Below, piece after piece: positions 8,928 through 38,630 of a DNA stretch of 64,000 nt. A program made the translations under genes and the position numbers. Each line of letters opens with the position of its first letter. The stretch's first letter is position 1. Below the pieces are notes generated by a model. That model saw only the letters and a list, made by a program, of their open reading frames with translations, was not told the origin of the DNA and searched no databases. The stretch is from assembly GCA_964478135.1 (NCBI GenBank), contig CAYZGQ010000001.1:3365-67364 (forward strand), given 5' to 3'. This DNA is from an uncultured Candidatus Saccharibacteria bacterium. Its GTDB lineage: Bacteria > Patescibacteriota > UBA1384 > GWA2-35-9 > CAYZGQ01.

Positions 8928-10043
8928 ATGGCTGGAATTATCTCAACTAAAAAAGCTAAAAAGCCGAAAGTCCTGGTTGCTCTTTCTGGGGGGGTTGATA
9001 GCGCCGTAGCCGCGGCTCTTCTGATTAAGCAAGATTATCAAGTCGAGGCCGCTTTTATGAAGAACTATACCCATCCGATTAAGACCCGGGTTGGATTGGC
9101 TTGCCCGTGGCAGGACGATTTGGCCTGCGCCCGCGAGGTGGCAAAACAGCTTGGTATTCGCCTCCATATTTTTAATTTTGAACTGGCGTACTATGAGAAA
9201 GTAGTCAGAAATTTTTTTAATGAGTACGCGGCCGGCAATACTCCTAACCCAGATGCTTTGTGTAACCGAGAAATAAAGTTTGGGCTTTTTTTAAAGCAAG
9301 CCCGCCGATTAGATTTTCAAAAAGTAGCGACCGGTCATTACGCTCAAGTCAAAACAAAAGTTTCTGATCCAACCCAAACGAGATTTTTAAGAGGGGTTGA
9401 TCTGAATAAAGATCAATCTTATTTTATGGCTTTAGTCAGACCGGATCAGCTTGAGCGGGTTATACTGCCAATTGGCGCTATGATTAAGCCGCGAGTCCGT
9501 CAGTTAGCGAGAGAGTTTGGCCTACCCAACGCCAACCGCAAGGACAGTCAGGGCATTTGTTTTATTGGTCCGGTTAAAGTCAATCAATTCCTTCGATCTT
9601 ATTTACCGGTCAAAAAAGGCCAAGTTATGACAACTGATAATCAGGTTGTGGGTCAACACGACGGGGCTTGGTTTTACACGATCGGTCAGCGTCACGGTCT
9701 CGGTCTTGGGGCTGACTTGCCTTACTATGTTGTTGGAAAGTCTGTCAAAAATAACACCCTGACTGTTAGTCTTGGTCCGGAAGATAGCGCCCTGTATTCA
9801 AGAGAGTTTCGGGTCAGATCATTGAACATAATCGCCAGAGCCAGCTTTGATCGAGGTTCGATATCTTGTCAAGTTCAAACCCGGTATCGTCAGCAACCGA
9901 TCGCCGGAACAGTCTTCCCTCAAGGCGCAAAGCAGGCCAAGGTAATTCTTAAAGAGCCGATTCGAGCCGTGACTCCAGGACAAGTAGCGGTATTTTACAC
10001 TGATAACGAGGTTTTGGCCGGAGGGACTATCGTGCTAAAATGA
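8928..10043 (+). CDS. mnmA: tRNA 2-thiouridine(34) synthase MnmA
   Basis: PP-loop VALSGGVDSAVAAALL, CNREIKF, KDQSYFM and DSQGICFIG. Confidence 0.9.
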   Translation: MAGIISTKKAKKPKVLVALSGGVDSAVAAALLIKQDYQVEAAFMKNYTHPIKTRVGLACPWQDDLACAREVAKQLGIRLHIFNFELAYYEKVVRNFFNEYAAGNTPNPDALCNREIKFGLFLKQARRLDFQKVATGHYAQVKTKVSDPTQTRFLRGVDLNKDQSYFMALVRPDQLERVILPIGAMIKPRVRQLAREFGLPNANRKDSQGICFIGPVKVNQFLRSYLPVKKGQVMTTDNQVVGQHDGAWFYTIGQRHGLGLGADLPYYVVGKSVKNNTLTVSLGPEDSALYSREFRVRSLNIIARASFDRGSISCQVQTRYRQQPIAGTVFPQGAKQAKVILKEPIRAVTPGQVAVFYTDNEVLAGGTIVLK

Positions 10044-11251
10044 AAACATCAAGGTTACTAATACTTATGATTCGTTTTAAAAGTCCTATTCTCGGGATTA
10101 TGATATTGGCTTTAGGTTGGTTGGGCGGATTTTTGCATGGCCACAGAAATCTTGTCTTTGAGCAATCGATTAAACCAACGATTGTTAACACAACTCTTCG
10201 AGAGCCAGATAAAGTTGATTTTTCACTCTTCTGGGACGCCTATAACGAAATTGCCCGAAAAGCGGTTGTTGAGCTGAATCCCAAACAGGCTCTTTATGGT
10301 TCAATTAGTGGTCTAGTCGGCACTTTAAAAGATCCTTTTTCTGTTTTTTTAAACCCCGATCAGTCCCGCCAATTTATAGATGATCTGGCGGGACAGTTCG
10401 ATGGGATCGGGGCCGAACTAGCCCTTAAGGATAATCAATTGATCGTGGTTGCCCCCCTGGAAGGTTCGCCAGCTCAAAAATCGGGCATCAAGGCCAAAGA
10501 TGTCATTGTCAAGATTGACGGGGTTGAGACTTCAACTCTCTCTTTCGGAGAGGCGATCGGCAAAATTAGAGGAGCAAAACGGAGCGTTGTAAAATTAACG
10601 ATTGCCAGGCAAGGCCAAGAGACCTTAATTGAATCGCCAGTCACCCGTGATACAATTCGGGTTAAGAGTGTTACGTCCCAAACCCGGGATCAAATCCTTG
10701 TGATTAAAGTCAGTCAATTTGGTCAAGACACATTAGGACTGGTTAAGTCATTGGCCAGCCAGGCCAAACGAGATCAGCCAAAAGGTATCGTCCTTGATTT
10801 AAGAAACAACCCAGGCGGTTTTCTGGATTCGGCGATTGATATTTCATCCCTTTTTTTAGATGGAGGAACGGTGGTTTTTGAGCAAGACAAGACTGGTCAA
10901 ACTAAGGAGTTTCAAACCACGCTTGAGCCGATGTTCGATCAACTGCCTATGGTGGTTATCATTAATGCCGGTTCTGCTTCAGCCAGCGAGATTGTCGCAG
11001 GAGCGCTTCAAGATAGGGGACGGTCTAAAATTGTGGGCGAACAATCTTTTGGCAAGGGTTCTGTTCAGGATTTGACCAAGCTTAGAGATGGTTCAACTTT
11101 GCGGATTACAACCGCAAGATGGTTAACACCTAACAAACGTCAGATTAACAGTCAAGGTATTCAACCCGACGAAAAGGTCCAAGATGATTCGGCGACCGAG
11201 GCTGACGAACAGCTTAACCGGGCCATAGAACTTTTATCAGTTAATAACTAA
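10040..11251 (+). CDS. ctpA: S41 carboxy-terminal processing peptidase with PDZ domain
   Basis: N-terminal TM helix, a PDZ domain (GSPAQKSGIKAKDVIVKIDG), the DLRNNPGG motif and the catalytic-Ser region NAGSASASEIVAGALQD. Confidence 0.85.
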   Translation: MKTSRLLILMIRFKSPILGIMILALGWLGGFLHGHRNLVFEQSIKPTIVNTTLREPDKVDFSLFWDAYNEIARKAVVELNPKQALYGSISGLVGTLKDPFSVFLNPDQSRQFIDDLAGQFDGIGAELALKDNQLIVVAPLEGSPAQKSGIKAKDVIVKIDGVETSTLSFGEAIGKIRGAKRSVVKLTIARQGQETLIESPVTRDTIRVKSVTSQTRDQILVIKVSQFGQDTLGLVKSLASQAKRDQPKGIVLDLRNNPGGFLDSAIDISSLFLDGGTVVFEQDKTGQTKEFQTTLEPMFDQLPMVVIINAGSASASEIVAGALQDRGRSKIVGEQSFGKGSVQDLTKLRDGSTLRITTARWLTPNKRQINSQGIQPDEKVQDDSATEADEQLNRAIELLSVNN

Positions 11252-11628: not shown

Positions 11629-12576
11629 ATGCCCGAGTTTGATCTTTCCCCGCCACCGCCCCAAGGACAAAATAATCCCAACGCGCCAGGCCAAGGATCA
11701 GTTAGTGATCTTAGAAACGCTCCAGTCTCTCCAGTCGCTGGGACAGCGCCTTTTAAACCTGACGCTGGGGCGATCGGTTCAGTGCCCAGCCATGAGCCAA
11801 ACCCCGGCCAAACGGTTGGTCCTAACCCCAATCAACCTGTGGTTTCGTCGGTTTTGGGTCCACCGGCGCCGGTTCAGCCCGATCAAGCTGGATCGGTCGC
11901 ACCTCCGGATAAGCCTTCTCTAGGTCCAGAACTACCAGCCGCTCAATCAGAATTACCCCCGGTAAAATCAGGGCGATCGGGTATGTGGAAGATTTTTATC
12001 GCCCTGGGCTTGGCGGTAGTGCTGACGGCTATTGTCTACGCTTTTGTTAGTCTACCATCACTGCGCGGCTTAATCGGCCTTGATAGCCCAGACAATCTAG
12101 TGCTAGATGATCAAGATCAAGTCAGCGATCTTGATGATCTGGGTTTTTCCGAGTTCGGGGATGATTTTTCAGACACGAGTCTCAATAACGGTGTGGTTGG
12201 AGATTTATCTCAAGGGAGGGTACCGGTTGGTCAACAAAATAACACTTCCTCGAACCTCGATAACCAGAGAAAGAATGATTTGTCATTGATTCAAAGTTAT
12301 CTCGAGGCTTACTTTACAGACAAGGGCGCCTATCCTGTCGCTGGATCATTTATTAAAACGAGCGATCCTTCTTCGGTTTTGCAGGCCGCGCTGTTACCGA
12401 GCTACGCCAGCCAATTACCAGACGATCCTAACTCGGGCCAAGGATGGTGGTATGGCTACCGTTCAGTTGATGGAGCTTCTTATGAACTGACCGCCCGGCT
12501 CGAAAACGAGATTGATCCGCAAGGGGTTAAAGATATTAGCGGTTTAACGCTTTACAAACTGAATAATCCCCGATAA
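11629..12576 (+). CDS. Pro-rich / TM / acidic-linker protein with pilin-like C-terminal domain
   Basis: Preceded by GGAGG-N4-ATG. About 115 aa of P/G/Q-rich sequence, then a TM helix (MWKIFIALGLAVVLTAIVYAFV), a D-rich linker, and a C-terminus QRKNDLSLIQSYLEAYFTDKGAYP...YGYRSVDGASYELTARLEN. That C-terminus resembles the globular part of type IV pilin-like proteins common in small-genome bacteria. No G|FTLIE prepilin signal is present. Confidence 0.5.
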   Translation: MPEFDLSPPPPQGQNNPNAPGQGSVSDLRNAPVSPVAGTAPFKPDAGAIGSVPSHEPNPGQTVGPNPNQPVVSSVLGPPAPVQPDQAGSVAPPDKPSLGPELPAAQSELPPVKSGRSGMWKIFIALGLAVVLTAIVYAFVSLPSLRGLIGLDSPDNLVLDDQDQVSDLDDLGFSEFGDDFSDTSLNNGVVGDLSQGRVPVGQQNNTSSNLDNQRKNDLSLIQSYLEAYFTDKGAYPVAGSFIKTSDPSSVLQAALLPSYASQLPDDPNSGQGWWYGYRSVDGASYELTARLENEIDPQGVKDISGLTLYKLNNPR

Positions 12577-12628: not shown

Positions 12629-12634
12629 TATAAT
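12629..12634 (+). promoter_or_regulatory. consensus -10 box (TATAAT) 9 nt upstream of ATG 12644; near-leaderless start of the TPR-giant-ABC unit
   Basis: TATAAT at 12629-12634. No SD precedes ATG 12644. The -35 is weak (TGGTTT at 17-nt spacing). Confidence 0.3.
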
Positions 12635-12643
12635 TAGACTGTT

Positions 12644-13207
12644 ATGCCACGGAGGGGACTTAATTATCTTCTTTTTAGTTTAGTTGTTGTTTCGGCGATT
12701 TTGATGATCCTTTTTTGGCGCAGGAGTCCCAAACAGCCAGTTGACCGGCTGGCCCAGGAGCAGAAAGCGGCCGTTCTCTTTACCAGCGCCAAGGAGGCCC
12801 AAACATCGAGAGACTTTAAAACCGCGGTTGCCCGCTATCAGGAAGCGATCTCGTTCAACCCGAATGAGCCGGTTTATTTTGAGTCGCTCGGAGTCGCCCA
12901 GTATAACATTAAGGATTACCGGGGGGCGATTGCCAGTTTTGAGCAGGCGCTCAAATTGACGCCCGGGAGCGCCTTTTTATGGAACGGTTTGGCCAACGCC
13001 GCTCGCGACAGCGGCGATCGCCAGAGAGCCTTTGAGAGCTACCGCAAGGCGATCGAGCTTGACCCGGGTTTTTTGGTCGGCTACACCAACTTGGCTTACC
13101 TTTACCGAGACCAAGGCGCGGTTGACCGGGCTAAGGAGGTAATCGCCGAAGGTCTGGCCAAAAATCCCGACTCGGTTGAGTTGAAAGACATTTTAAAAAA
13201 CCTATGA
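12644..13207 (+). CDS. membrane-anchored TPR-repeat protein
   Basis: N-terminal TM helix, then 3-4 TPR units (A..Y..AI...P.......LG.A......Y..A...F..AL.L.P). The stop overlaps the next ATG (ATGA at 13204-13207). Confidence 0.8.
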   Translation: MPRRGLNYLLFSLVVVSAILMILFWRRSPKQPVDRLAQEQKAAVLFTSAKEAQTSRDFKTAVARYQEAISFNPNEPVYFESLGVAQYNIKDYRGAIASFEQALKLTPGSAFLWNGLANAARDSGDRQRAFESYRKAIELDPGFLVGYTNLAYLYRDQGAVDRAKEVIAEGLAKNPDSVELKDILKNL

Positions 13208-16200
13208 AACGTCATTTGATTAAAACTCTCGAACGTTTGCTTCATCTGCGGCGCCGGACGACAGGCAGAGTTCACGCCCATCTGGTTGGTCGATGGGGCT
13301 GGTATCGAATCTGGCACGAATTTCCTTTTCACCGCCAGGTTCATTTAACCTCTCTTATTTTGATAGTTTTTGGCACGCTCGGTTTGGTCTTGACAGCCAC
13401 TCGGCCGGCCTTGGCAACTGACTACACCGTCTCGACCAACTCGACTTGGTGCGACTCGGGCGATCTGCCGGCCTCAATCGGCAATCTGACAATTAATTCC
13501 GGCGTTACCCTGACACTCGGCGGGACATCTGGCAACGCGGTCAACGGCCAGAATACTGGCGGGACCGACGCCTGTTCTTATGAGGCGCCGAGTTCGGGTG
13601 TCAGTTGGACAATGACCGGGACAGGGACCTTGACGGTTAACGGCACAATCAAAGTTCAAAGCGAGATTTCCGGCTCAACTGGCGGCACAGTCAAAATAGA
13701 TTTTGCGACAGTGACAGTTGCTTCAGGAGGTAAAATTCATGCTGACAGCACGGGGTTTCTCTCATGTAACACATCAGGTTGTACTGGAGGCGGAGCAGGT
13801 GGAGGACAGTGGACCTCTGGCTATTACGGTGGCGGTGGGGGGCATGGCGGGAAAGGCGGCACCGGTCATATTACTAATGGAAAAGGAGGTTCGGTAAATG
13901 GTAATTCATTTGCTCCTGTGACACTGGGTTCGGGCGGAGCGGGAGGTTCTCAAGGGGCAGGAGGTGGAGCAGTTTATATTAATTCAAGTGGCACCGTTAC
14001 AGTTACAGGAACGGTATCCGCAAATGGTGAGGTAAGCAATAGCAGTGTTGGCGGAGGGGGATCTGGAGGGAGCATTTACATTACCGCCGCTACTGTTGCC
14101 GGCGCAGGGACTGTTACAACGACTGGGGGGGATGGTGGTAGCGCATCCGCTGGTGCGGGCGGAGGCGGTAGAGTTGATATTCGCTATTCGACAGCCAATA
14201 CCTTTAGCGTTGCCAACGCAACAGCCGCAACTGGTTCTACTGGCGTAGCTGGTGATGCTGGAACAATTATTTTTATTGATTCAACCAACAAGGATGGGTA
14301 TATCTACAAAACTTTTACATTCAGTGCGGCGCAAGGAATAGATACAAACTTAGCGACAACTACTGACGGAATATTTAATTTTCGCGATCTTACTTTAGGC
14401 GACGCTTCCAACACTGCAACTGTGTTAGCAATATCAACCGGAACAAGCCCCAATGGTAAAGGACCAACCCTCAATCTAACTGGAAACTTTACTTTAGCCA
14501 GTGGCTCAACCTTTTCAGCCAATGGCACGGGTTATTCCGGTGGTTCAACAACTGGCGTTGGGCCTGGGGGTGGAACCTGGGCTAGCGGGTTTTACGGTGG
14601 TGGAGGAGGGTATGGCGGAGCTGGCGCCACGGGGAGCTCCAGCTATGGTGTTGGTGGCCCTACTTATGGTTCAGCTTCAGCGCCAATTGATCTTGGTTCT
14701 GAAGGTGGAGGCGATCTAGCATCCTCATCGGGTGATGGCGGCGGCGCTATTAGAATCAATGCTACTTCAGGCACTGTTACTATCAATGGCACGATTTCAG
14801 CCAATGGTTCTGCTGGAGGCAGTAGTGTATCTGCCGGCGGTTCAGGCGGCAGTATCTATATTACAGCAGCGACGACCGCTGGCACTGGTTCAATTACAGC
14901 TAATGGCGGCGCTGGAGGTAGTGGCAGCGCTGGCGGAGGGGGCGGCGGTCGGTTGGGTCTTTATTATGTGACTGCCCAAAATCACACCGGTAGCAGGACG
15001 GCCAGCCTCGGGAGCGGCGGGACTGGCGGCTCGGCCGGCACGGTCACTCTCAAATCAATCCCAGCCGCTCCGACCCTTTCCTCTCCGGCCGACGCCGACG
15101 GGGTTTCAACCACGCCGGCTTTGCAGTTTTCAACCACTAATGCCGGCACGAATGAAAATGTTCAGTACTACATCCAGATTGACGACAATTCTGATTTTTC
15201 CTCGGTCACTCAAACGATTGACCAAACCGCCTCTCAAACCGGTTGGACCGGACAAGATCGGGCTAACGGCACGAGCGCGACCGCCGGATCAAGTTTTTAC
15301 GCCTCCTCGACCAGCGCCACTTTTACGGTCCAGACCGCTCTGACCACCAACACCACCTATTACTGGCGCGTTCGAGCCATTGCCTCGGGTGGATCGAATA
15401 TCTATGGCAGTTACTCGAGTTCTCGTTCGTTCGTGACCAACGACCCGCCCCAAGTCTCGATCACCAACACCCCGAGCCAGGATTCTTCCGGCAACATCGC
15501 GATCAACTACAATATCTGTGATACCAACCACTCGACGCTGACCATGCGGGTCCAGTTTACGACCAACAACTCGATCTACACGACCGTCGCCGCCGGGGCG
15601 CTCTCGGGCACCAACAGCTTTGGGTCGGTCACCGGCGTCTCGAGTAATTGCGCCTCGCCCAGCGCCAAGACAGTCACCTTTGACGTCTCGGCCGATTCTA
15701 ATGTCCCGGCCTCCTACTACTCGGCCGCCTCGGGAAACTGGAAAGTTCGCATCCAAGCCGACGATGGCATCGCCAACGGCCAGATCAACTCGACCGCCTC
15801 GTCCGCCTTTGAGCTGGACAACGTCTCGCCCGCTACCCCGACCCATTCTTCGCCGGCCAACGCCAGCTACACCAACGACACCACCCCGGATTTGACCGGA
15901 TCGGCCTATTCCGACGACACTACTCAAACCAATCTTCGGATTCAGATTGACGATAATTCGGATTTTAGTTCGGTCGCTGTTGACTACACCAAAGGCGCTT
16001 CCGGCGTGACCTTTACGGTCGGTCAGGCGGTCGGTTCGGGGACATACACCGCCGGATCGGCCGGTCAAACTTTAGCCGACGGGACATACTACTTTCGGCT
16101 GCGCTACACCGATTCAAAAGGCAATCTATCGAGTTATTCGACCGGCACCTCGTTTACCGTTGACGCGACTTCGCCGGTCGCGCCTAGCTCGTTCAATATT

Positions 16201-19200
16201 TTTGACACTTCAACCGGCTCTAATAATTCCCATCAGGTTGAATGGAACGCCGCTACCGAGGCAAACTTCAAAAATTATCTTGTCCTGCGTTCAACCGATG
16301 ACGTCAGTTATTCGACGCTCTCAACCATTACCGATTCAACCATCCGCAACTATCGAGACTCCAGCCTTGACTCGGCTACGACTTACTACTATAAGATTCG
16401 GACGACCGACCAGGCTGACACGGCGACCGATACGGCCGCCGTGTCGAACAAACCCGGCGCCCCGACCCTCTCGGCGATTTCTTCCGGCACGCCCGGGACC
16501 AACTCGGCCACCATTACTTGGACTTCAAGCGAAAACGGCAGTTCAGAAGTTCGACTCGGGACCTCAAGCGGCAGTTATGGTCTTGGCGTTCGGGGCAACA
16601 ATGCCGACTCGGCTACCTCCCATTCCCAGTTGGTTTCAAATCTCAATCCCAATACGACCTATTACTACATCGTTAGGTCTCGAGACGGCAGTGGACTGGC
16701 GACCACCTCGGCCGAGAATAGTTTTACCACCGCGGCCAAAGTTTCAGCCAGCTCTCTTGCCTCGAGCGTCAGTCACACGACCGCCACCCTGACTTGGAAC
16801 ACCACTGGCACCAACACCTCGAGTGTTGTTGACTGGGGAACCTCAAGCGGCAGCTACAGCCGATCAGACGGCGACGCCGACGCTTCAGAGACGACCCACT
16901 CGGTTACCTTGAAAGGACTAGCTCCGGGCACGACCTATTACTGGCGGGTCAACTCGACCGATTCAAACCTAAATGCCATTACCTCGACCGAGCAGAACTT
17001 GACCACGACCGCCAGACCGGCGATTTCATCAGTCTCATCCGGCACGCCCGGTCAAACCAGCGCCGCGATCACCTTTTCGACCGACCGGTCGGTCAAGGAT
17101 GTTTTTGTTGATTACATTGCTTCCTCAACAAGCGGCGCCTGCGCCAGTGTCTCGAATGCCAAAACGGTTTCGGGCGGGATCGCCGCCAGCGCCGGCACGT
17201 CCCACAGCGTCTCTTTAACCGGTCTTTCGGCCGGCACGACCCATCGGTTCAGAGTTCGAGTGATCGAGCTTGACGCTTCAGCTGAGAGCGCCAATCAACA
17301 GGTTCAAACGATTGATGACAACTCCGGCGCCTGCTACAGCTTTACCAGCGCGACCGACTCGACCGCTCCGACTATTTCCAATCTCGCTTCCGGCAACATC
17401 ACCAACACCTCGGCGGTTATCACTTGGGAGACCGACGAGCCGGCGACCGGCCTTGTTTCGGTCAGCTCTTCAAGCGGTTTTGGTTTTGCCAGCGGCAGCC
17501 AGACAACCGCCAACCCCTCGGCCAATAATCAGAAACAGACCGCCGTTATTACCGGGTTGACCAGAAACACAACCTACTATTTCTTGGCCCGGTCGGTTGA
17601 CGGTTCAAATAATGCCACGACTGCTCCTGAAGCTTCATTCACGACGACCGGCGACGCGACCGGTCCGGTTATTTCCGGCTTGACCGCAAGCTCGATCACG
17701 ACCGACGGCGCCCTCATAACCTGGACGACCGACGAGCCGGCCACGACTCAAGTCAACTATGGCCAAACGACCAATCTGGGCTCGTCCTCGGCCAAAGATG
17801 AAAAGCTTGATCGCAATCACCGAGTCACGCTATCCGGTCTTTCGGGCGCCACGCTCTATTACTTCCAGGTGGTTTCCCAAGACGCCAACGCTAACGAGAC
17901 CAAGAGCCCTGTTTCCTCGACCACCACCTTGACCACCCAGACCGTGCCGAGTGTCTCGAGCATCTCGCTGGGAGAGATTAGTTCAAAAACAGCGACTGTC
18001 AGCTGGAGCTCCAATCTCGCTGGCGATTCGTTCGTCGATTATGGTCTGACTTCGAGTTATGGTTCGCGTCAAGGTCGAGCTGATGACAGCCAAACCGCAC
18101 ACTCAATCACTCTCTCTGGCTTGAAGTCCTCGACCACTTATTACTTTCGAGTCAGAACAAAAGATTCAAACGGCAACGAAGTCATCTCGTCTGGTTCAAG
18201 CTTTACAACCGAGAGCTCGGAAGACGATGTCTCGTCTGACAAATTGGCCCCGGTCATCAGCGGCAATGAAGCCAGCCTCTCTGGTCTAACCGATACTCGA
18301 GCGACAATCAGCTGGACAACCAACGAGGAGTCAACCTCGAGGGTGGATTATGGTCTTGACCAATCTCTCAATCAGTCCCAAAGCGACGATACTTTTGTGA
18401 CCAAGCATGAATTGAAGTTGACCGGCCTTGAAGCGGGCAAGAAGTATCGTTTTCAAGTCTCGAGTCTCGATCGAAACAAGAACCGCGGCAAAGGGAGCGT
18501 TCAAGAGTTTACGACCGCCAAGTCTTCGGCCATTTCCGACGCTTCGCTCGTCACTCAAGAGCTCGATAAACTGATCCTTTCGGTTCAAACGACCGAGGCG
18601 ACCAAGGTGAGGGCTCTCTTTGGCGCCGGTTTGGACAGACTTGACTCCGAAGTTTCAAGTCTGGGCGCCGAGACCTCGAGCCACGCCTTTGTGATCGAGA
18701 ATCTCACTCCGGGGACGGCCTATTATTTTCAGTTTTCGGTTAAGGACAAGTTTGGTCAGGAAACGACCACACCGAGTTTTTGGAAGTTTGAAACTCGAGC
18801 CTTGCCGAAAATTACGGCCGTTAATGTAACCGACCAACAGGCGACCCAGGCGGTCTTGTTGGTTTCAGTCAACACTAAAGCCCAAGTGATCGCGGCTTAC
18901 ACCGATCTTAATAGCAAAAGCCGGAGCGTTGGCTCTGGAGCGCTGGCCGAAAAGCACGAAATTAGGCTGGACGGTCTGAAACCAGAAGCAACCATTCCAG
19001 TTGCCTTGACCGCGATTGACGCATCTGGCAATCAGGCCGTTTTTCAAACCAATGTTTCGACCACCGGCGATCGGTCCGCGCCCGAATTTCAAAAAATCGA
19101 GACCGAGATTATCGGCGGGAGCGGCAACAAAGGGGCGACGATCATCGTCTCGGCGGTGCTTAGCGAGCTGGCGACACTTAATGGTCAGGCCGGTCTGGCC

Positions 19201-19461
19201 GCCAGCAATCAGACGCCGATAACCACGCCCAAAAACGCCGCCGCTAAGGAACAGACATTGGTTTTTCGGAATCTGCCTTCTGGTCAGTTTGTTAAGTTTA
19301 AGCTGATAGCCGAAGATCCGGCAGGCAATGTCACAGAGTCGCCCGACATCACCACCTTTACCCCGGAGCCGAGTAAAAGCGCTCTGACCCTTATCACGAC
19401 TCAACTTGAAACTATCTTCGGCGGTCTGGGAAAAGGCCTTCAGTCTTTATTTGGCAAGTAA
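13204..19461 (+). CDS. giant (2085 aa) membrane-anchored surface protein: duplicated Gly-rich beta-helix-like modules plus a long array of FN3-like domains
   Basis: Basic N-terminus followed by a TM helix (LTSLILIVFGTLGLVLTA). Two homologous Gly-rich modules. Two 'IQIDDNSDFSS' modules. At least 10 repeats of the type '..ATITWTS.E..SS.V.YG..S..Y......d....tH.v.L.gL.p.TtYYfrV.S.D..GN'. Confidence 0.85.
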   Translation: MKRHLIKTLERLLHLRRRTTGRVHAHLVGRWGWYRIWHEFPFHRQVHLTSLILIVFGTLGLVLTATRPALATDYTVSTNSTWCDSGDLPASIGNLTINSGVTLTLGGTSGNAVNGQNTGGTDACSYEAPSSGVSWTMTGTGTLTVNGTIKVQSEISGSTGGTVKIDFATVTVASGGKIHADSTGFLSCNTSGCTGGGAGGGQWTSGYYGGGGGHGGKGGTGHITNGKGGSVNGNSFAPVTLGSGGAGGSQGAGGGAVYINSSGTVTVTGTVSANGEVSNSSVGGGGSGGSIYITAATVAGAGTVTTTGGDGGSASAGAGGGGRVDIRYSTANTFSVANATAATGSTGVAGDAGTIIFIDSTNKDGYIYKTFTFSAAQGIDTNLATTTDGIFNFRDLTLGDASNTATVLAISTGTSPNGKGPTLNLTGNFTLASGSTFSANGTGYSGGSTTGVGPGGGTWASGFYGGGGGYGGAGATGSSSYGVGGPTYGSASAPIDLGSEGGGDLASSSGDGGGAIRINATSGTVTINGTISANGSAGGSSVSAGGSGGSIYITAATTAGTGSITANGGAGGSGSAGGGGGGRLGLYYVTAQNHTGSRTASLGSGGTGGSAGTVTLKSIPAAPTLSSPADADGVSTTPALQFSTTNAGTNENVQYYIQIDDNSDFSSVTQTIDQTASQTGWTGQDRANGTSATAGSSFYASSTSATFTVQTALTTNTTYYWRVRAIASGGSNIYGSYSSSRSFVTNDPPQVSITNTPSQDSSGNIAINYNICDTNHSTLTMRVQFTTNNSIYTTVAAGALSGTNSFGSVTGVSSNCASPSAKTVTFDVSADSNVPASYYSAASGNWKVRIQADDGIANGQINSTASSAFELDNVSPATPTHSSPANASYTNDTTPDLTGSAYSDDTTQTNLRIQIDDNSDFSSVAVDYTKGASGVTFTVGQAVGSGTYTAGSAGQTLADGTYYFRLRYTDSKGNLSSYSTGTSFTVDATSPVAPSSFNIFDTSTGSNNSHQVEWNAATEANFKNYLVLRSTDDVSYSTLSTITDSTIRNYRDSSLDSATTYYYKIRTTDQADTATDTAAVSNKPGAPTLSAISSGTPGTNSATITWTSSENGSSEVRLGTSSGSYGLGVRGNNADSATSHSQLVSNLNPNTTYYYIVRSRDGSGLATTSAENSFTTAAKVSASSLASSVSHTTATLTWNTTGTNTSSVVDWGTSSGSYSRSDGDADASETTHSVTLKGLAPGTTYYWRVNSTDSNLNAITSTEQNLTTTARPAISSVSSGTPGQTSAAITFSTDRSVKDVFVDYIASSTSGACASVSNAKTVSGGIAASAGTSHSVSLTGLSAGTTHRFRVRVIELDASAESANQQVQTIDDNSGACYSFTSATDSTAPTISNLASGNITNTSAVITWETDEPATGLVSVSSSSGFGFASGSQTTANPSANNQKQTAVITGLTRNTTYYFLARSVDGSNNATTAPEASFTTTGDATGPVISGLTASSITTDGALITWTTDEPATTQVNYGQTTNLGSSSAKDEKLDRNHRVTLSGLSGATLYYFQVVSQDANANETKSPVSSTTTLTTQTVPSVSSISLGEISSKTATVSWSSNLAGDSFVDYGLTSSYGSRQGRADDSQTAHSITLSGLKSSTTYYFRVRTKDSNGNEVISSGSSFTTESSEDDVSSDKLAPVISGNEASLSGLTDTRATISWTTNEESTSRVDYGLDQSLNQSQSDDTFVTKHELKLTGLEAGKKYRFQVSSLDRNKNRGKGSVQEFTTAKSSAISDASLVTQELDKLILSVQTTEATKVRALFGAGLDRLDSEVSSLGAETSSHAFVIENLTPGTAYYFQFSVKDKFGQETTTPSFWKFETRALPKITAVNVTDQQATQAVLLVSVNTKAQVIAAYTDLNSKSRSVGSGALAEKHEIRLDGLKPEATIPVALTAIDASGNQAVFQTNVSTTGDRSAPEFQKIETEIIGGSGNKGATIIVSAVLSELATLNGQAGLAASNQTPITTPKNAAAKEQTLVFRNLPSGQFVKFKLIAEDPAGNVTESPDITTFTPEPSKSALTLITTQLETIFGGLGKGLQSLFGK
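13741..14200 (+). repeat. Gly-rich beta-helix-like module, copy 1 (coding)
   Basis: ADSTGF...GGGAGGGQWTSGYYGGGGGHGGKGG...GGGAVYINSSGTVTVTGTVSANG...GGSGGSIYITAATVAGAGTVTTTGGDGG...GGGGRVDIRY. Homologous to copy 2. Confidence 0.75.
14518..14985 (+). repeat. Gly-rich beta-helix-like module, copy 2 (coding)
   Basis: ANGTGY...GPGGGTWASGFYGGGGGYGGAG...GGGAIRINATSGTVTINGTISANG...GGSGGSIYITAATTAGTGSITANGGAGG...GGGGRLGLYY. Confidence 0.75.
16450..19380 (+). repeat. tandem array of at least 10 FN3-like domains of about 90-100 aa each (coding)
   Basis: Recurrent pattern A.ITW.T.E..SS.VdYG.tS..Y......d....tH...L.GL...TtYYfrV.S.D..GN. Confidence 0.75.
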
Positions 19462-19483
19462 GTCCTTAAATTAAAGACAAGCG

Positions 19484-20188
19484 ATGCCAGCCAGCAACGT
19501 AATTGAACTTAGATCGGTCACGAAAATCTTTGACAAGGGCAAGCCGAACGAGTTCTATGCCCTCCGAGATGTCAGTCTCGAAGTCAAGGCCGGAGAATAC
19601 TTAATTCTTTTTGGGCCGTCCGGTTCGGGCAAATCAACCCTTTTGAACATTGTGGCCGGTCTTGATCCCTACGAGAAAGGCGAGGTCTTGATCCGAGGCG
19701 AGCGGCTCTCGAAAAAAAGTCAGAACGAGCTGGCTCGCCACCGGCGGGAAAAGGTCGGTATGGTCTTTCAGCAGTTTAACCTTTTGAAAGGGATGTCTGT
19801 TCTTGACAATGTTGCTTTGCCCGATTTGTTTGCCGGTAAATCTTACAAGGTCCGGCGCAATCGGGCCAAAGAACTCTTGAGTCGGTTGGGGTTGAGTAAA
19901 ATGGCTTATCGCAAGCCCAACGAACTCTCGGGCGGACAACAGCAGAAAGTCGCGATCGCCCGGGCCCTGATTCACAACCCTTGGATTTTGCTGGTTGACG
20001 AGCCGACCGGCAATCTGGACTCCAAGTCGGCCGAAGAGGTGATGAATCTACTCAAAGACCTTAACCAGAAGGGCAAGCGGACGATCATGCTGATTACTCA
20101 TAATCCGGATTATCTTGACTATTCCAATCGGGTGGTTTACATGCGCGATGGGAAAATCGAGCGAGAAAAGAGGTCAAGATCACGATGA
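19484..20188 (+). CDS. ABC transporter ATP-binding protein (MacB/LolD/FtsE-like)
   Basis: Walker [11 protein letters not shown]-loop, signature [15 protein letters not shown], Walker [13 protein letters not shown] and H-loop ITHN. Confidence 0.9.
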
Positions 20189-21381
20189 GGCCGGTCGATT
20201 TTTTGAGATTAAGCCTTCAAAATATTTGGGGCAATCGTTTAAGATCAAGCCTGACTGTTTTGGGAGTTAGTATTGGCATTGGCTCAATCGTTTTTTTGGT
20301 CGGCTTAGGCTTTGGCCTGCAACGTCTGACAATTAACCGGATAATCTCTTCGGCCGCCTTGACCACCTTGGATGTCACGACCACCAAGTCGGCCCTTCTT
20401 AAGCTCGATCAAGAAGCGACCAGCCGGTTTGCCAACATCACCGGAGTTGAGGCGGTTTCGCCGATTTTCCGACTGCCTGGTCAGAGTCAGCGGGACGGGA
20501 CGGCGACCGAGACTCTGATTCAGGGGGTCGAGCCCTCGTTTTTTGACCTTGAGGGGATGAAGCTTGTAGCCGGAAGAATCCCGACAGACTTTTTAAAGCC
20601 GGTTTTGGTCGTCAGCGCGAGCACGGTCAAGCTTCTTGGTTTTGAAAGTCCGCAGGCGGCGCTCGATCAAAAACTTGAGATCCGGGCGGCAATTGTCGGC
20701 TCGGAGGACGGTGAGAATAATGGTCTGGTGGCTCAAAAAAATTATAAATTGCCAGTCGCCGGCGTGGTCGAAAACGAATCCTCGGTCGTTTATCTGCCGA
20801 TTGAGCTGGTGCGATCGGAACAGTTGATCAATTACGATCAGGTCAAGGTTAAGGCGCGCTCGATCGTGGAAATAGACCAGATCAAACAGGGAATCAGCGA
20901 CCTTGGGTTTCAGGTGACATCGGTTGCCGATTTGGTTGAGGAGGTCAATCGGATCTTTCGCTATTTCCAGATCATTATGGGCGGTTTTGGTCTAATCGCT
21001 CTCCTTGTCGCTTCGATCGGAATGTTTAATACGATGACAATCGCCCTGCTTGAGAGAACTCGGGACATAGGAGTTATGAAGGCGATCGGGGCGAGAAACT
21101 TCGACATTAAAGTCTTATTTGTCGCCGAGTCAACTATTCTAGCCGTTCTTGGCGGCTCTCTCGGAGTCTTTTTGGCTTGGTTCTTGAGCCTTTTGGTCAA
21201 CGGTTTCGTCAGCCAGATCGCCCGAGCCGGCGGCGTCGGCCCGATTGATCTCTTTTACTTCAACCCGATCTTTGTTTTGTTGGTGGTTTTGTTTTCCCTT
21301 GTTGTCGGTTTGCTAACCGGCATCTATCCGGCGCTTCGGGCCGCCAGACTCAATCCCTTAACCGCGCTAAGATACGAATAG
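20185..21381 (+). CDS. ABC transporter permease, FtsX/MacB type with extracytoplasmic domain
   Basis: TM1, then an extracytoplasmic domain of about 230 aa, then three C-terminal TM helices carrying the FtsX-family motif (ERTRDIGVMKAIGA...). 4-nt overlap with the ATPase gene. Confidence 0.85.
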   Translation: MRPVDFLRLSLQNIWGNRLRSSLTVLGVSIGIGSIVFLVGLGFGLQRLTINRIISSAALTTLDVTTTKSALLKLDQEATSRFANITGVEAVSPIFRLPGQSQRDGTATETLIQGVEPSFFDLEGMKLVAGRIPTDFLKPVLVVSASTVKLLGFESPQAALDQKLEIRAAIVGSEDGENNGLVAQKNYKLPVAGVVENESSVVYLPIELVRSEQLINYDQVKVKARSIVEIDQIKQGISDLGFQVTSVADLVEEVNRIFRYFQIIMGGFGLIALLVASIGMFNTMTIALLERTRDIGVMKAIGARNFDIKVLFVAESTILAVLGGSLGVFLAWFLSLLVNGFVSQIARAGGVGPIDLFYFNPIFVLLVVLFSLVVGLLTGIYPALRAARLNPLTALRYE

Positions 21382-21411
21382 TCGCCTCACTTGCTCCAAG
21401 GTTTTGATTGA

Positions 21412-23517
<2,106 letters not shown>

Positions 23518-23956: not shown

Positions 23957-25444
23957 ATGGCAGTACCAAAAACAATCGCCCTGGCTTACCGGGCGCTTCA
24001 AAAAAGAGACATCAGCTCGGTCGAACTGACGCGAGCTGTTCTCGATCAGATTAGGCAGTTTGATCCGCAAATCAAGGCCTTTCTTTATTTTGATCAAGAT
24101 CAGGCTATAACACAGGCTAGGGCGAGTGACAGTCGCAGACGCTCCGGTCAATCAAAAGGCATTTTGGACGGAATTCCGATCGCGCTCAAGGACGTTTTGG
24201 TCACAACTGACATGCCCACGACCGCCGCGTCCAAGATTCTGGAAGGCTTTATGTCAGCCTACGACGCAACAGTGGTTGCGAAACTTAGGTCCCAAGGCGC
24301 GGTACTAATCGGCAAGACGAACATGGACGAGTTTGCCATGGGTTCTTCGACCGAGAATTCGGCCTACGGGCCGACAAAAAATCCATGGGATCTAGGGCGC
24401 GTGCCGGGTGGATCATCCGGAGGCAGTGCGGCCGCGCTGGCCGCTGGAATGTGTCTGGCCGCGCTTGGTTCGGATACAGGAGGTTCAATTCGCCAGCCAG
24501 CCAGTTTTTGCGGCGTGGTCGGCTTTAAGCCGAGCTATGGCGCTGTTTCGCGCTACGGTTTAATCGCTATGTCGTCGAGTCTCGATCAGATCGGACCGAT
24601 GACCCAAACAGTAGCAGATGCTAAGATATTGTTTGAAGCTATCAAGGGTCAGGATCGGTCAGACGCAACGAGCGTTCAAATTAAAAGACCAACTAGGAGC
24701 AACCGTCAGGTTAAGGCAATAGGTCTTGCCAAAGAGTACTTTGGTCAGGGACTAGATTCACAGGTGAAACCATTGGTTGTCAGAGCGATTGAACTGCTTG
24801 CTCGATCAACCGGGGCAGATATTGTTGAGATATCTTTACCGAACGCCCGCTTTAGCGTCTCGGTCTACTACATTTTAATGTCGAGCGAAGTGGCCAGTAA
24901 TCTGGCGCGCTACGATGGAGTTAAGTACGGCTTGCAGATTCAAGGCGACACTTTGCTCGAGAGTTACCTTGAAAGCCGTTCCAAGGGTTTTGGTCAAGAG
25001 GCTAAGCGCCGGATTATGCTGGGTACTTTTTCTTCGTCAGCCGGCTATAGCGATCAGTATTACCAGAAAGCCCAGCTCGCGCGGGCCAAAATTAAGCAGG
25101 ACTTTGATCAGGCGTTCGAAAAGGTTGATTTAATCGCCGCGCCAGTCGCTCCAACTACCGCGTTCAAGCTAGGTGAAAAGGTTGACCAGCCTCTTCAAAT
25201 GTACCTTTCAGATATTTACACTATTCCAACCAATCTAGCTGGTTTGCCCGGTATTTCAATTCCTTGCGGTTTGGTTGAGGGTCTGCCTGTTGGTCTCCAG
25301 TTGATGGCTAATCGATTTGAGGACGAGTTTTTACTCGATATTGGTCAAAAATACGACCAGGCGCGCGGTCAGTTACCCGGTCCACCATATACTAGCGGTA
25401 CTAATGCCAAGGGAAGACAGATCAAAGTGAGATTAAAGTTATGA
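23957..25444 (+). CDS. gatA: Asp/Glu-tRNA amidotransferase subunit A
   Basis: Amidase signature GGSSGGSAAALAAG...GSDTGGSIRQPASFCG. Confidence 0.95.
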   Translation: MAVPKTIALAYRALQKRDISSVELTRAVLDQIRQFDPQIKAFLYFDQDQAITQARASDSRRRSGQSKGILDGIPIALKDVLVTTDMPTTAASKILEGFMSAYDATVVAKLRSQGAVLIGKTNMDEFAMGSSTENSAYGPTKNPWDLGRVPGGSSGGSAAALAAGMCLAALGSDTGGSIRQPASFCGVVGFKPSYGAVSRYGLIAMSSSLDQIGPMTQTVADAKILFEAIKGQDRSDATSVQIKRPTRSNRQVKAIGLAKEYFGQGLDSQVKPLVVRAIELLARSTGADIVEISLPNARFSVSVYYILMSSEVASNLARYDGVKYGLQIQGDTLLESYLESRSKGFGQEAKRRIMLGTFSSSAGYSDQYYQKAQLARAKIKQDFDQAFEKVDLIAAPVAPTTAFKLGEKVDQPLQMYLSDIYTIPTNLAGLPGISIPCGLVEGLPVGLQLMANRFEDEFLLDIGQKYDQARGQLPGPPYTSGTNAKGRQIKVRLKL

Positions 25445-25893
25445 AAAAGCGACTGAACAATCAGCCTTCCTATCAAGAGAAAGTCTTTGACGCCTTGATT
25501 GGTGGAGTAGGCAAGATCGTCGGTTTAGTACGAATTAGCCCTAAATCGAGCAGACCGATCAAGTCAATTGATCGTTTGGAGATCACCACTCGCTGGCGTC
25601 AGATCGAGCAGAGTCATCGTTTAGGAGGTTCATCTGGGCTCAAGCAGGCGGTGATTGAAGCCGATAATCTGCTCGATAAGGCATTGAGAATGAAAGTTTC
25701 AGGCCAAACTATGGGGGAACGTTTAATTAACGCTCAAAGCTTAATAAGTTCTCAAGCCTATCAAGCCGCCTGGGAAGGACATAAACTGCGCAACCGTATT
25801 GTTCACCAAGACCAGAGCGAGGTGTTGAGTTTTGAGACAGAACAGGCGCTTAAGGGTTTCAAACAAGCTCTTCTCGAATTGGGAGGATTATGA
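25441..25893 (+). CDS. hypothetical protein inserted between gatA and gatB
   Basis: 150 aa. ATGA overlaps at both ends (25441-25444 and 25890-25893). Predicted helical C-terminal half (AVIEADNLLDKALR...GHKLRNRIVHQ). No family recognised. Confidence 0.6.
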   Translation: MKKRLNNQPSYQEKVFDALIGGVGKIVGLVRISPKSSRPIKSIDRLEITTRWRQIEQSHRLGGSSGLKQAVIEADNLLDKALRMKVSGQTMGERLINAQSLISSQAYQAAWEGHKLRNRIVHQDQSEVLSFETEQALKGFKQALLELGGL

Positions 25894-27445: not shown

Positions 27446-30400
27446 TTGATCCCGCTGGCACAAGCAGGCCAGCTTTTTGGCTATTCAGCCGGTCATATGA
27501 ACTATTTAGCCCGGTCAGGGAAAATAATCGCTTTGAAACTCGGGGGTCAGTGGTACACGACTCGGGCGGCTGTTTCAGCCTACCAGGCCGGTCAACCCCA
27601 ACCGGAAAACCCGACCGGATTTATGTCTTTAGCCCAAGCGGCCAAGCAGTATGGCTATAGCGCCGGACATCTCAACCTTTTAGCCCGAGAAGGTAAGCTT
27701 GAAGCGGTGAAACTTGGGCGAAACTGGTACACGACCGAGCGCGCTATCGACCAGTACCGACAAGGCGTGCGTGAGATAGAATTAGTGCCAGATAGTCCTG
27801 ACCCGGCGCTCCAGATATCCCAGCCAGAAAATATTAATGTTAAAGTCAGGCCAGTAGCCAGTTACCAGGGATTTGGCATAACCGAAACCGATGATGACGC
27901 GCCAGGTCCGACCGGGGGATTTAGGCTCAAGTCAGTTATGGTCAGCCGTGGTTTTAAGCTCGGGTTGATCACACTTATAGTGTCTGGGCTGGCTTTTGGA
28001 CTGGGACGACTGGTTCAAGGCTGGCGCACGGGTGAGTTGAATGGACTGGGGCCATCTGGCATCGCGGCTTATTTGTTTGGTGGAGAGTTGGCCCAAGGAG
28101 ATCGTCTGGGCTCGGGTTTTCTCGGCAGTATCACACGAGAGCGAGCTCAATCCGATACGCCTGGGGTCAGACCCGAGGCGAGCCCTAGTCCGGACACTGT
28201 GGTCAATAACACGACAGTCAACAACTATAACCAGACCGTTAACAACGACAATCGTCAGGTGACAAACATCAGTACAACCAAAACTGCTAAAGATATTGTT
28301 GGAGAGTTATCCGACCCGCAGGTGAGTGATGACATCACGATTAACTCGAGCAAGGCTGGTTCGTTTAGTCCAAGCGGTAACACTACTGCCTTGACGGTCA
28401 AGCAAAGTTCAGCCAGTCCCTCGGAAACCCCGATCGTTAAGATTCAAAACGCGTCTGGGGCTAACCTTGTCACAGTTGATTTTGAAGGCAATTTAGGTCT
28501 GGCTGGTGGATCTAGATTGGAAATAGGCGGTCAGCAAATAGGAATTGCCAATCTAGCGGATGGATCTTCTATCGCGTCTCTTTCCGGTAGTCAAACTCTG
28601 ACTAATAAAACTTTGAGCGCGGGCGTTATCTACCAAGGATCGGCGATTAGCCCGAGCTACGGCGGGACCGGTCTAACATCAGCTCCCAGCAACGGCCAAC
28701 TCTTGATCGGCAATGGCTCGGGTTATACTCTGGCGGCTCTAACGGCTGGGACGGCAATTAATGTGACCAACGGTTCTGGTTCAATTACGATCGCTAATTC
28801 AGGTGTTACCTCGCTATCTGCCGGAACCGGCATCGCTGTTAGCGGTTCGTCGGGCGCGGTTACACTGACCAATTCGGGCGTGACCGCTCTGACCGGCACA
28901 ACCAACCAGGTCAGCCTGTCTGGTTCAACCGGTTCGATCACCATCTCAACGCCCCAAAACATTCATACCGGCGCCAGTCCAACCTTTTCAAGGCTCAATT
29001 TATCCGAGGCGTCCAATCAGTTGGTTCTTCAGTCAAATAGTGTTACAGGCAGTCTGACCTGGACGCCGGTCACATCCAATAAAACGATCACTCTGCCTAA
29101 TCTCACCGGAACCGCTTTTTTGATTGATGGAGGCCAGACGATCAGCTCTGCTGTCTGGAACGCTAGCGCTATCGGCCCGAGCTATGGCGGGACTGGTCAG
29201 ACGACCCTGGCCAAGGGTGATATTTTGTATGGCTCGGCGACTGATATTTGGTCGCGACTGGCTGTTGGCAGTATTGGTTATGTCCTCCAGGTCTCCCTAG
29301 ACGGCGTTCCAGAATGGGCGACTATTTCTTCCTTATCTGTTGGTAATGCTGACACGCTTGATTCGCTTGATTCAGCGGATTTTTTGCGCGCGACCGCCTC
29401 GGACACTTTTGAAGGAGTTAATTCAAGAACCCTGACCATTCAGTCTGATCTTTCCTCAGGCGCGAGGACGGTTGACCTTTTGACGATCAGCCAGGCGAAC
29501 GATCCAACCAATAACTTTACGACTGGCAATCTCCTAACAATTGCCCAACTCGACACCGGTTCGTCGGCCGATGCCTTAGAACTTAATCAGACTGGATCTG
29601 GTAAGGCTATTAACATTGTTTCAGGCGAGCTGGCGACAGCCGGCAACATCGTTCAAACCGGGGCAACCACGCTGTCAACCGGCACGGGCGCGGTCTCGCT
29701 CGGGGGTGACACGACCATCGCTACTGGAAAGAACTTGACTCTCGCGTCCGGGACAGGCACTTTTAGTCAGATTTTTAGTAATACGACCGGTACTGGAGCA
29801 AACTGGAATATCACTAACTCTGGTTCTTCTGGGACTAACACTGTTGGCGGGATAGGATTAGTGTTGGCTGGAACCGCCAACACGACTGGTTCGAATGTGA
29901 TTAATGCTATTAATTTTTCCAATGTCCCTCCGGCGACCAATAATTCTTATTACGCCCTGAATGTCGGAACCGGCTTTACTGATATTGTACGCTACAATGG
30001 CGCCCAGTTGATCTCTGGCTCGGGTGTCATTCAATCGGCCGCGCTTTCTGGTAACTACACTGGTGTTACTGGAGTTGGGATTTTATCCACCGGCACCTGG
30101 AATGCAGACACAATCATCTTTGCCAAGGGCGGCACGGGCTTAACAGCCACGCCCAGCAATGGCCAACTCTTGATCGGCAATGGCTCGGGTTACACTCTGG
30201 CCGGCTTAACCGGCACTACCAATCAGATCAATGTCGCTAGCGGGGCCGGTTCGATCACCCTCTCAACTCCCCAAAACATCCATACCGCCGCCAGTCCAAC
30301 CTTTGCCGGTTTGACTTTGTCCGACTTGACCCCTGGTTCTTTGGTCTTTGCCGGCGCCGGCGGGGTGATCAGCCAGGACAACGCCAAGTTCTTCTGGGAT

Positions 30401-38577: not shown

Positions 38578-38630
38578 TATCCCTCCTTTTGAGCTCAAGA
38601 TATATTTAATTAATTTGTAATTCTGTTTTT

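Follow-up and report, generated by a model that had tools for sequence, protein, structure and literature searches.

Linkage of a C-terminally tailed surface-fibre gene to a MacB-type ABC pair at a Saccharibacteria locus and in other Patescibacteria

The four genes and the tail that ends the fibre

Patescibacteria account for a large share of bacterial diversity. The window analysed here, a 64,000-nucleotide stretch of contig CAYZGQ010000001.1 from an uncultured Candidatus Saccharibacteria bacterium, holds four consecutive genes that encode a tetratricopeptide repeat (TPR) protein, a giant fibre protein containing fibronectin type III (FN3) domains, and the ATPase and permease of an ATP-binding cassette (ABC) transporter. 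The computations reported below found a conserved three-way linkage of such genes, a tail at a strictly terminal position in the fibre proteins, a MacB fold in the permease model and intact ATPase motifs. The conserved tail, which an earlier note on this DNA had missed, is the most informative feature of the system. The genes and the tail lie as follows:

12644..13207, + strand: TPR gene, open reading frame (ORF) of 187 aa
13204..19461, + strand: giant fibre gene, ORF of 2085 aa
19484..20188, + strand: ABC ATPase gene, ORF of 234 aa
20185..21381, + strand: permease gene, ORF of 398 aa
19324..19458, + strand: family-defining C-terminal tail of the giant, comprising the end of the last FN3 domain and an amphipathic helix, sequence ...GNVTESPDITTFTPEPSKSALTLITTQLETIFGGLGKGLQSLFGK and then the stop codon

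The positions, overlaps and spacers of the four genes as first described are borne out by the ORFs and the junction sequence. Read directly, the TPR and giant genes share an ATGA overlap at 13204-13207, a spacer of 22 nt (19462-19483, sequence gtccttaaattaaagacaagcg) separates the giant gene from that of the ATPase, and the ATPase and permease genes share a 4-nt ATGA overlap at 20185-20188. Pfam likewise upholds the domain calls (TPR; FN3 and Pur_ac_phosph_N; ABC_tran; MacB_PCD and FtsX).

The last ~110 aa of the giants in this family are conserved and alignable, unlike their N-terminal parts. The tail consists of the final FN3 domain and an amphipathic helix of ~25 residues, YTxLTPxxxxSxLQxIIxxLExTFGW, or, as a fuller consensus, ...GNxxxSxDYT(I/V)LTPxxxxS(v/l)LQ(l/v)I(i/v)xxLE(e/d)TF(G/S)W(v/l)..., which ends 0-15 residues before the stop codon. 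A logo built from 100 unique sequences places the hydrophobic stripe of the helix at i, i+3, i+4, i+7, i+11, i+14 and i+17, and the helix has a hydrophobic moment of 0.415 (0.188 for shuffled sequences) and moderate hydrophobicity. Even with the threshold relaxed to E <= 10, nothing in Pfam or NCBIfam matches the tail. When the library was searched with the profile, 49 of the best 150 matches carried the tail helix; in 49/49 tail-bearing representatives, of 962-6321 aa, the tail stands at the extreme C-terminus and is never internal. An all-against-all profile search gave 26,079 matches at E <= 0.001, a figure that is dominated by summed FN3 repeats and does not measure the size of the tail family, and the tail profile, run in a word-indexed protein search, yielded nothing but short fragments from contig ends, which served as a modelling alignment and not for counting.

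The giant of the window belongs to this family by profile, with a last FN3 domain and a terminal helix no more than ~15 residues from the stop codon. A tail hidden Markov model (HMM) from which the window copy had been left out scores it at 37.5 bits (independent E-value 9e-11) at the extreme C-terminus, across the FN3 end and the helix. The tail HMM aligns to aa 2041-2081 of the giant, the amphipathic helix occupies aa ~2060-2083 (nt 19381-19452), and in a six-frame translation of the whole window this C-terminus is the sole tail match. The window tail reads ...SKSALTLITTQLETIFGGLGKGLQSLFGK, and a model of the helix alone gives it only 10.2 bits (E 0.024), a weak score that marks it as a divergent member of the family. 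An AlphaFold2 (AF2) model of the last 130 residues predicts an FN3 sandwich (block-mean predicted local distance difference test score, pLDDT, of 83-97, mostly above 90) and, behind it, one lone helix spanning residues 105-128 with a pLDDT of 64-69. The tail looks like a sorting or docking signal, and there is an even chance that it acts as a recognition handle.

The ABC pair and its neighbours in relatives

The ATPase matches Pfam ABC_tran and retains an intact Walker A motif, Q-loop, LSGGQ signature, Walker B motif (ILLVDEP, D172-E173) and H-loop; its best NCBIfam matches are MacB, LolD, DarD and FtsE, all under the equivalog cut-offs. Pfam places MacB_PCD at aa 21-239 of the permease and FtsX at aa 268-391. 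The AF2 model of the permease (pLDDT 86.7) has helices at 18-54, 247-290, 305-348 and 361-387 and an alpha/beta outside domain of ~190 aa (55-246) between the first and second transmembrane (TM) segments, and hydropathy agrees with four TM segments. Compared with the PDB by Foldseek, the model matches 5gko_A with E 2e-23, MacB (5nik_J) with a query TM-score (TMq) of 0.74, YtrEF (9o9x_C) with 0.71, LolE (9rld_E) with 0.70, 5xu1 with 0.61 and FtsX (8ymc_C) with only 0.46, so that its best fold matches are MacB, LolE, Spr0694/5 of S. pneumoniae and YtrEF of B. subtilis. As modelled, the permease is of MacB type (type VII ABC), with the MacB/LolE/YtrEF fold. The pair had been described as 'MacB/FtsEX-type'; the resemblance to FtsX is poor both in fold and in the HMM scores, which fall far below cut-off (FtsX_actino 45.8 vs 250, FtsX_Gpos 43.6 vs 225, FtsX_Gneg 33.6 vs 255, FtsE 202 vs 264.85). 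The Lol equivalogs are not reached either (lolCE 79.1 vs 362.45, LolD 211.2 vs 307.75), and the permease is also far below the cut-off of the NCBIfam MacB equivalog.

It might be expected that a pair from the same ABC superfamily as FtsEX, with FtsE among its top ATPase matches, would regulate wall hydrolysis or division, with the fibre as an unrelated neighbour or a wall-associated scaffold. The FtsEX systems with EnvC, PcsB, CwlO or RipC do share with the module a separate ATPase and a four-TM FtsX-type permease, and their genes often adjoin the partner gene. FtsX grips a helical partner, EnvC or PcsB (PMC7668044, PMC6355983), and the module would be expected to resemble it in having an outside domain that grips a helical element of the partner, with no substrate crossing the membrane. 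However, the module permease has a full MacB-type outside domain, the FtsX models reach a mere 34-46 bits where 225-255 would be needed, the TMq is 0.46, Pfam finds no hydrolase or coiled-coil activator gene in the cluster, and the client has no hydrolase domain. In place of a coiled-coil hydrolase activator, the partner here is an FN3 fibre that ends in a single helix, no link to division is seen, and a wall-hydrolysis role is accordingly very improbable.

The best fold matches (5gko, 5nik, 5xu1, 9o9x) instead belong to MacAB-TolC and the Gram-positive systems Spr0693-0694-0695, YknXYZ and YtrEF. The Gram-positive MacB-like pumps also have a separate ATPase, as the module does. The module cluster differs from pumps of the MacAB type in that it has no gene for a MacA/HlyD-type adaptor and in that its conserved neighbour is a tail-bearing fibre, with or without a TM-anchored TPR protein. 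No such membrane-fusion adaptor occurs among the window genes between positions 311 and 39587 or in the 41576..45193 ORF, and none among the called genes of homologous loci L003-L008 and L169-L171.

Relatives of the permease number more than 1000, and where they have names at all these are generic ones for Patescibacteria ABC permeases. [quoted passage not shown] L004, among the closest relatives (45-49% identity), has a 4492-aa FN3 protein, the ATPase, the permease and a ferredoxin gene in succession; in L005 a protein of 2655 aa or more precedes ATPase, permease, a TPR protein of 176 aa and recO; and L007 begins with a 3173-aa FN3 protein, with a phosphoglycerate mutase gene standing between it and the run of ATPase, permease, TPR and recO. 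In most homologous loci an ATPase label stands immediately upstream of the permease; the gene maps of L009, L010, L016, L019, L076 and L079 show no ATPase label, and tblastn finds one at L009 and L010. Size variants were seen in both members of the pair, namely ATPases of ~430-480 aa with a C-terminal extension of ~200 aa (L028, L061, L044 and others) and permeases of 660-715 aa that are extended at the N-terminus and whose outside domain is far larger (L133, L157 and others).

An ORF of at least 1000 aa fills the slot just upstream of the ABC pair at 19/61 loci, and within two slots on either side the count is 35/240 vs 5/375 at four or more genes (Fisher odds ratio 12.6, p 8e-11, uncorrected for shared ancestry). 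A tail-bearing FN3 protein lies within 3 genes of the permease at 35 loci and probably at 6 more, where the 3' end of a large ORF is missing, vs 17 loci that have enough flank and no such protein (58 assessable). Judged by the order of the permease tree, the short-ATPase clade that includes the window has ~19 positive and 3 negative assessable loci, and the long-ATPase clade mixes positives with negatives, even among loci of about 85% similarity, and includes one sub-clade without positives. Where an adjacent giant has a readable C-terminus, 15/16 carry the tail (L047 does not).

The converse searches lead to the same place. One tail alignment (A2) was too diverse to offer any stretch conserved enough for a metagenome scan, and a narrower one (A3) was used, which biases the tail-anchored test toward the '(S/T/N)LE(D/E/K)TF(G/S)W' sub-type; on metagenome contigs the ABC pair is adjacent in at least 33/47 non-redundant cases, absent on both sides in 1, and absent downstream in 13 whose upstream side is unassessable. 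Look-ups anchored on the TPR protein found it beside ATPase and permease in 3/3 cases, and in two of these three loci the same tail is found on a 571-aa protein whose signal peptide is classical, so that the tail, not size, defines the clients. Tandem clients occur in L035 and L081.

The co-occurrence of TPR, giant and ABC genes in related genomes, proposed by the earlier note as a check on its idea of a dedicated module, is thus found from three independent anchors (permease, tail and TPR). The idea is strengthened by a linkage that recurs across lineages and weakened by a TPR gene that is confined to part of the family. The flanks of ABC pairs with giant FN3 genes vary (ligA, recO, a ferredoxin gene), the giant sits before or after the pair, and gene order and flanks differ among CPR classes; because the linkage is kept through all of this, inherited gene order alone does not explain it. 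We hold it highly probable that the genes are functionally linked, and we give equal weight to either answer on whether the locus is one copy of a module widespread in Patescibacteria that comprises a fibre, a MacB-fold ABC pair and, in this lineage, a TPR protein.

A simpler account would have no direct coupling at all, with the ABC pair serving as a MacB-type exporter of a general kind or as a resistance pump, its substrates being peptides, lipids or drugs, and with its adjacency to the fibre due to inherited order, envelope co-regulation or genome compaction. Consistent with this are the tight packing of genes throughout the window, the 17 assessable loci without a tail protein, the paralogous MacB-type pairs in these genomes (L023, L069) and the generic names in the source records. 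However, the adjacency outlasts changes of order, of orientation relative to the pair and of flanks across many CPR classes; the odds ratio is 12.6; the tail- and TPR-anchored searches converge on the same neighbourhood; and the neighbours are specifically tail-bearing, as 15/16 readable adjacent giants attest. We regard such a lack of direct coupling as decidedly improbable.

The TPR protein of the window has a hydrophobic segment at aa 6-24 followed by TPR repeats (Pfam TPR families). It belongs to a distinct TM-TPR family of 176-222 aa; of the distinct full-length members tabulated, 23/23 carry a TM segment at the N-terminus. In most members lysine and arginine are richer on the N-side of this segment than on the C-side, a sequence bias that suggests an N-in topology with the TPR domain facing outward. 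Searched with the family HMM, every locus that holds the family has a copy 1-2 genes from the ABC pair or a tail protein (L096 also has a truncated second copy 8 genes off); profile searching with the TPR protein became noisy beyond the best six matches, where generic TPR proteins appear. TPR domains commonly bind terminal peptides. Only ~20-25% of loci contain the gene, which is found at four different positions, while the tail is universal; this makes the permease the likelier universal partner and the TPR protein a lineage-specific helper.

Two of the TPR-containing loci have a further neighbour. In L170 (3903..10621) a response regulator and a histidine kinase lie directly upstream of the ATPase, permease, a 571-aa tail-bearing FN3 protein and TPR, and in L171 (12..5236) only the kinase is visible before the contig end, an arrangement that suggests regulated expression of the module in this lineage.

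Export and possible installation of the fibre

Upstream of the tail, the giant is divided into three parts:

13204..13416, + strand: export signal, with a 45-aa basic n-region, a hydrophobic segment at aa 46-66 and then P-A-L-A|T-D
13417..15063, + strand: Gly/Ser/Thr-rich N-terminal region by translation, the variable 'tip' of the family, duplicated internally
15064..19323, + strand: array of FN3/Ig-like domains forming the stalk, with 7 stretches of Pfam Pur_ac_phosph_N and 4 of fn3

These 7 and 4 stretches each pass in Pfam on their own. The n-region carries a W-x-W-Y-x-x-W-H-x-x-P...H motif, and the signal-peptidase-like site P-A-L-A|T-D falls after residue 71. In 63 family members the n-region is basic, with a median length of 39 aa and a maximum of 135 aa, and is followed by one hydrophobic segment; in many of them an A-x-A-like site immediately precedes a conserved mature start. 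The fibre N-terminus thus looks like a long, probably cleavable signal peptide and not necessarily an anchor, and the earlier description of the giant as N-terminally anchored is doubtful given the P-A-L-A|T-D site behind its hydrophobic segment. A His/Trp-rich form of the motif (W.WY..WH..P....H; aa 1-45 of the giant, 13204..13340) precedes the hydrophobic segment in a subset of tail-bearing giants, including those of L027, L031, L080, L092-L097, P0270 and P0337, and the loci of such giants mostly also carry a TM-TPR gene.

Behind the signal, the Gly-rich region (aa ~72-615) contains an internal duplication in which GGSGGSIYITAAT...GG.GG is present twice. No sequence match to this region exists in Pfam or the PDB, and the 'beta-helix' label that it had been given is without support there. 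The region is common to only some homologues ('Gn' labels), the N-terminal parts of the giants consisting variously of Gly-rich repeats, a 'TYxFxQxxWSGG' start or DUF2341. In fibrillar adhesins a variable tip on a conserved base is the usual architecture, and the combination of a variable N-terminal part with a conserved base in these giants matches, by analogy, the logic of adhesins.

These features may inform a mechanism. The fibre would cross the membrane via Sec, and its long signal peptide would probably be cut off. The C-terminal helix, as the last part to emerge, would then be caught on the outer side of the membrane by the extracytoplasmic domain or stalk of the permease, assisted by the TPR protein where one is present. 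A conformational change driven by the cytoplasmic ATPase (mechanotransmission) would seat the base of the fibre, hold it or hand it on, leaving the fibre displayed with its variable N-terminal tip away from the cell. Capture of a helix is proposed because of the analogy with FtsEX, which grips EnvC, and with LolCDE, which handles exported lipoproteins. For the proposed mechanism as a whole, we see the balance as level. Held more tentatively, and with somewhat less than even confidence, is the broader proposal of a new Patescibacteria sorting pathway in which a C-terminal FN3 domain and amphipathic helix would mark surface fibres (of more than 6000 aa at the maximum) and a type VII ABC system, with a TPR co-receptor in some lineages, would recognise this mark outside the cell and install or anchor the fibre at the expense of ATP.

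Several observations weigh against this picture. The closest relative of all, L003 (49% identity), has TPR and, directly after it, the permease at 9319..11203, followed by ligA, with neither ATPase nor tail protein between TPR and permease. Seventeen permease loci with enough flank have no nearby tail protein, the sub-clade of L015, L023, L029, L030, L033 and L074 has none at all, the tail protein of L108 has an ABC pair on neither side, and the enrichment statistics take no account of shared ancestry. The window tail is itself divergent, with FGG in place of FGW and a helix-only E of 0.024, and the charge distribution of the window TPR protein is ambiguous (2 vs 4). The conserved, cytoplasmic n-region motif and the helix-turn-helix (HTH)-like heads of some members hint at a retained N-terminal anchor. 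Contact of the tail with the ABC complex or the TPR protein is a step that we infer, and the same holds for signal-peptide cleavage, TPR topology and the choice between anchoring and hand-off. L003 may be a degraded or rearranged module; a large protein 6 kb upstream at that locus is without the tail, and Fic, MazE/PIN and Bro-N genes intervene.

LolCDE and HrtBA extract membrane-embedded moieties. There is reason to consider a Lol-like release, in which the ABC pair would extract an outer-leaflet tail or an uncleaved N-terminal segment and expel the fibre to the wall, the medium or a host cell: the permease fits LolE almost as well as MacB (TMq 0.70 vs 0.74), and the tail is amphipathic and moderately hydrophobic. 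LolCDE, too, has a MacB-fold permease and acts after translocation on Sec-exported, membrane-associated proteins that it hands on. On the other hand, the clients of the module have no lipobox, the tail is too weakly hydrophobic to span a membrane, no acceptor protein was identified (no LolA, LolB or outer membrane is evident), the NCBIfam Lol models are far below their cut-offs, and a single permease gene, presumably encoding a homodimer, stands in place of LolC and LolE. Such a release differs from installation of the fibre in outcome alone, all tested features being common to both, and we consider it unlikely.

The module also recalls LapA with LapBCE and SiiE with SiiCDF, in which a giant repetitive surface protein with a position-specific C-terminal signal is encoded beside an ABC system. 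By the same logic as for these adhesins (PMC6272769, PMC8277102), the tail would be a secretion signal recognised inside the cytoplasm, and moving the giant across the membrane would be the work of the ABC pair itself. However, the permease has a MacB fold, a family in which no transmembrane substrate path is known (PMC5985334), and the ABC system of the module is of type VII rather than HlyB type. The scanned window genes include no HlyB-type ABC_membrane protein, membrane-fusion protein or outer-membrane factor; within the cluster, Pfam detects no ABC_membrane, HlyD or OEP domain, which sets it apart from type 1 secretion. The clients have N-terminal Sec-type signals, and their tail is an amphipathic helix behind an FN3 domain, not an RTX-type signal. 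Export by the pair itself is therefore a very remote prospect.

Closer in logic to the proposed sorting of fibres are the sortase/LPXTG and exosortase/PEP-CTERM systems, which likewise combine a short conserved signal at the extreme C-terminus with variable N-terminal parts, whose machinery is often encoded beside a client, and in which several clients per system are possible. The module tail differs from such signals in having no TM segment and basic cluster, and no transpeptidase is present, the candidate machinery being the ABC pair.

That no system of this kind has been described, as the earlier note supposed, agrees with the literature on giant proteins of CPR, on MacB/FtsX in these bacteria, on YtrEF and Saccharibacteria genetics, and on sorting signals and the giant genes of Omnitrophota, in which no published description of the linkage or the tail was found. 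Taken singly, the type VII ABC transporter, the TPR protein and the FN3 fibre belong to known kinds; for the libraries searched, what is new is the tail and the conserved pairing of these parts. The tables for Southlakia epibionticum list MacB-like pairs and no FN3 protein of the Pur_ac_phosph_N type, and the cultivated Saccharibacterium with transposon sequencing (Tn-seq) data probably lacks the system. SEML1_0890 of S. epibionticum is a small, unrelated Ig-like protein.

The Patescibacteria in cultivation grow on the surface of other cells, an attachment believed to depend on their large surface proteins (10.1101/2020.11.10.374967, PMC10633639). The module bears on the question of how large surface proteins without LPXTG are anchored on an envelope that lacks an outer membrane. 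If the proposal is correct, it would supply a concrete anchoring or deployment mechanism for such fibres, the tail profile would pick out a whole class of surface fibres from metagenomes, and type VII ABC mechanotransmission, so far applied to wall hydrolases, lipoproteins and efflux, would extend to giant fibres. The tail peptide and the permease ectodomain would also offer a biochemical handle that does not depend on culturing. Should the sorting pathway hold, the MacB family would have a new job, as a functional counterpart of sortase/LPXTG in Patescibacteria.

Surroundings of the cluster in the window

The remaining features lie around the four genes:

12629..12634, + strand: TATAAT, a -10-like hexamer 10 nt 5' of the TPR start codon; weak, chance-level evidence
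34598..35275 and 35272..38598, - strand: adjacent genes for a sortase and a 1108-aa surface protein
41576..45193, + strand: gene for a 1205-aa surface protein, near the sortase gene

The TATAAT hexamer and the tight packing on which an operon had been proposed are both present, but neither argues for one. The hexamer has no acceptable -35 partner and is missing from the output of a two-hexamer promoter scan. Nearly all genes of the 64-kb window are on the + strand with overlaps or short spacers, and since such packing is a window-wide background, expected for a small CPR genome, the spacing says little about function or operon structure; the two cues were rejected as operon evidence. In the promoter/terminator scan, 13 terminator-like matches on the + strand between 12146 and 21190 all fall within coding sequence and none in the spacers between the four genes, and one promoter-like site (21404-21431) lies between the permease gene and ligA.

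The cluster is flanked by housekeeping genes, with mnmA, a ctpA-like S41 peptidase gene, rplI and the gene for a 315-aa protein without a Pfam match upstream, and ligA and then gatCAB downstream. The 315-aa protein (11629..12576, +), directly 5' of the TPR gene, has a Pro-rich N-terminus, one TM segment and no family match; it is absent beside the module in every other locus and so is probably no part of it. Between gatA and gatB lies a 150-aa ORF without a Pfam match (25441..25893, +) that overlaps each by 4 nt; L003 has a 151-aa ORF directly after gatA, but there four more genes precede gatB.

Both of these surface proteins, of 1108 aa and 1205 aa, are rich in CarboxypepD_reg domains, and their C-termini consist of LPKTG, a hydrophobic/TM segment and a basic tail. 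The giant is not a sortase substrate, as it ends in ...LETIFGGLGKGLQSLFGK without LPXTG, hydrophobic segment and basic tail. With LPKTG proteins and a sortase alongside the tail and ABC module, the genome uses at least two C-terminal signals.

A further large ORF of 1816 aa (27446..32896, +) starts with a cytoplasmic, DNA-binding-like head of two tandem HTH_17-like repeats (GYSAGHxNxLARxGKxxAxKLGxxWYTT), and a similar HTH-like head precedes the TM segment of P0339, a tail-bearing giant in the representative library.

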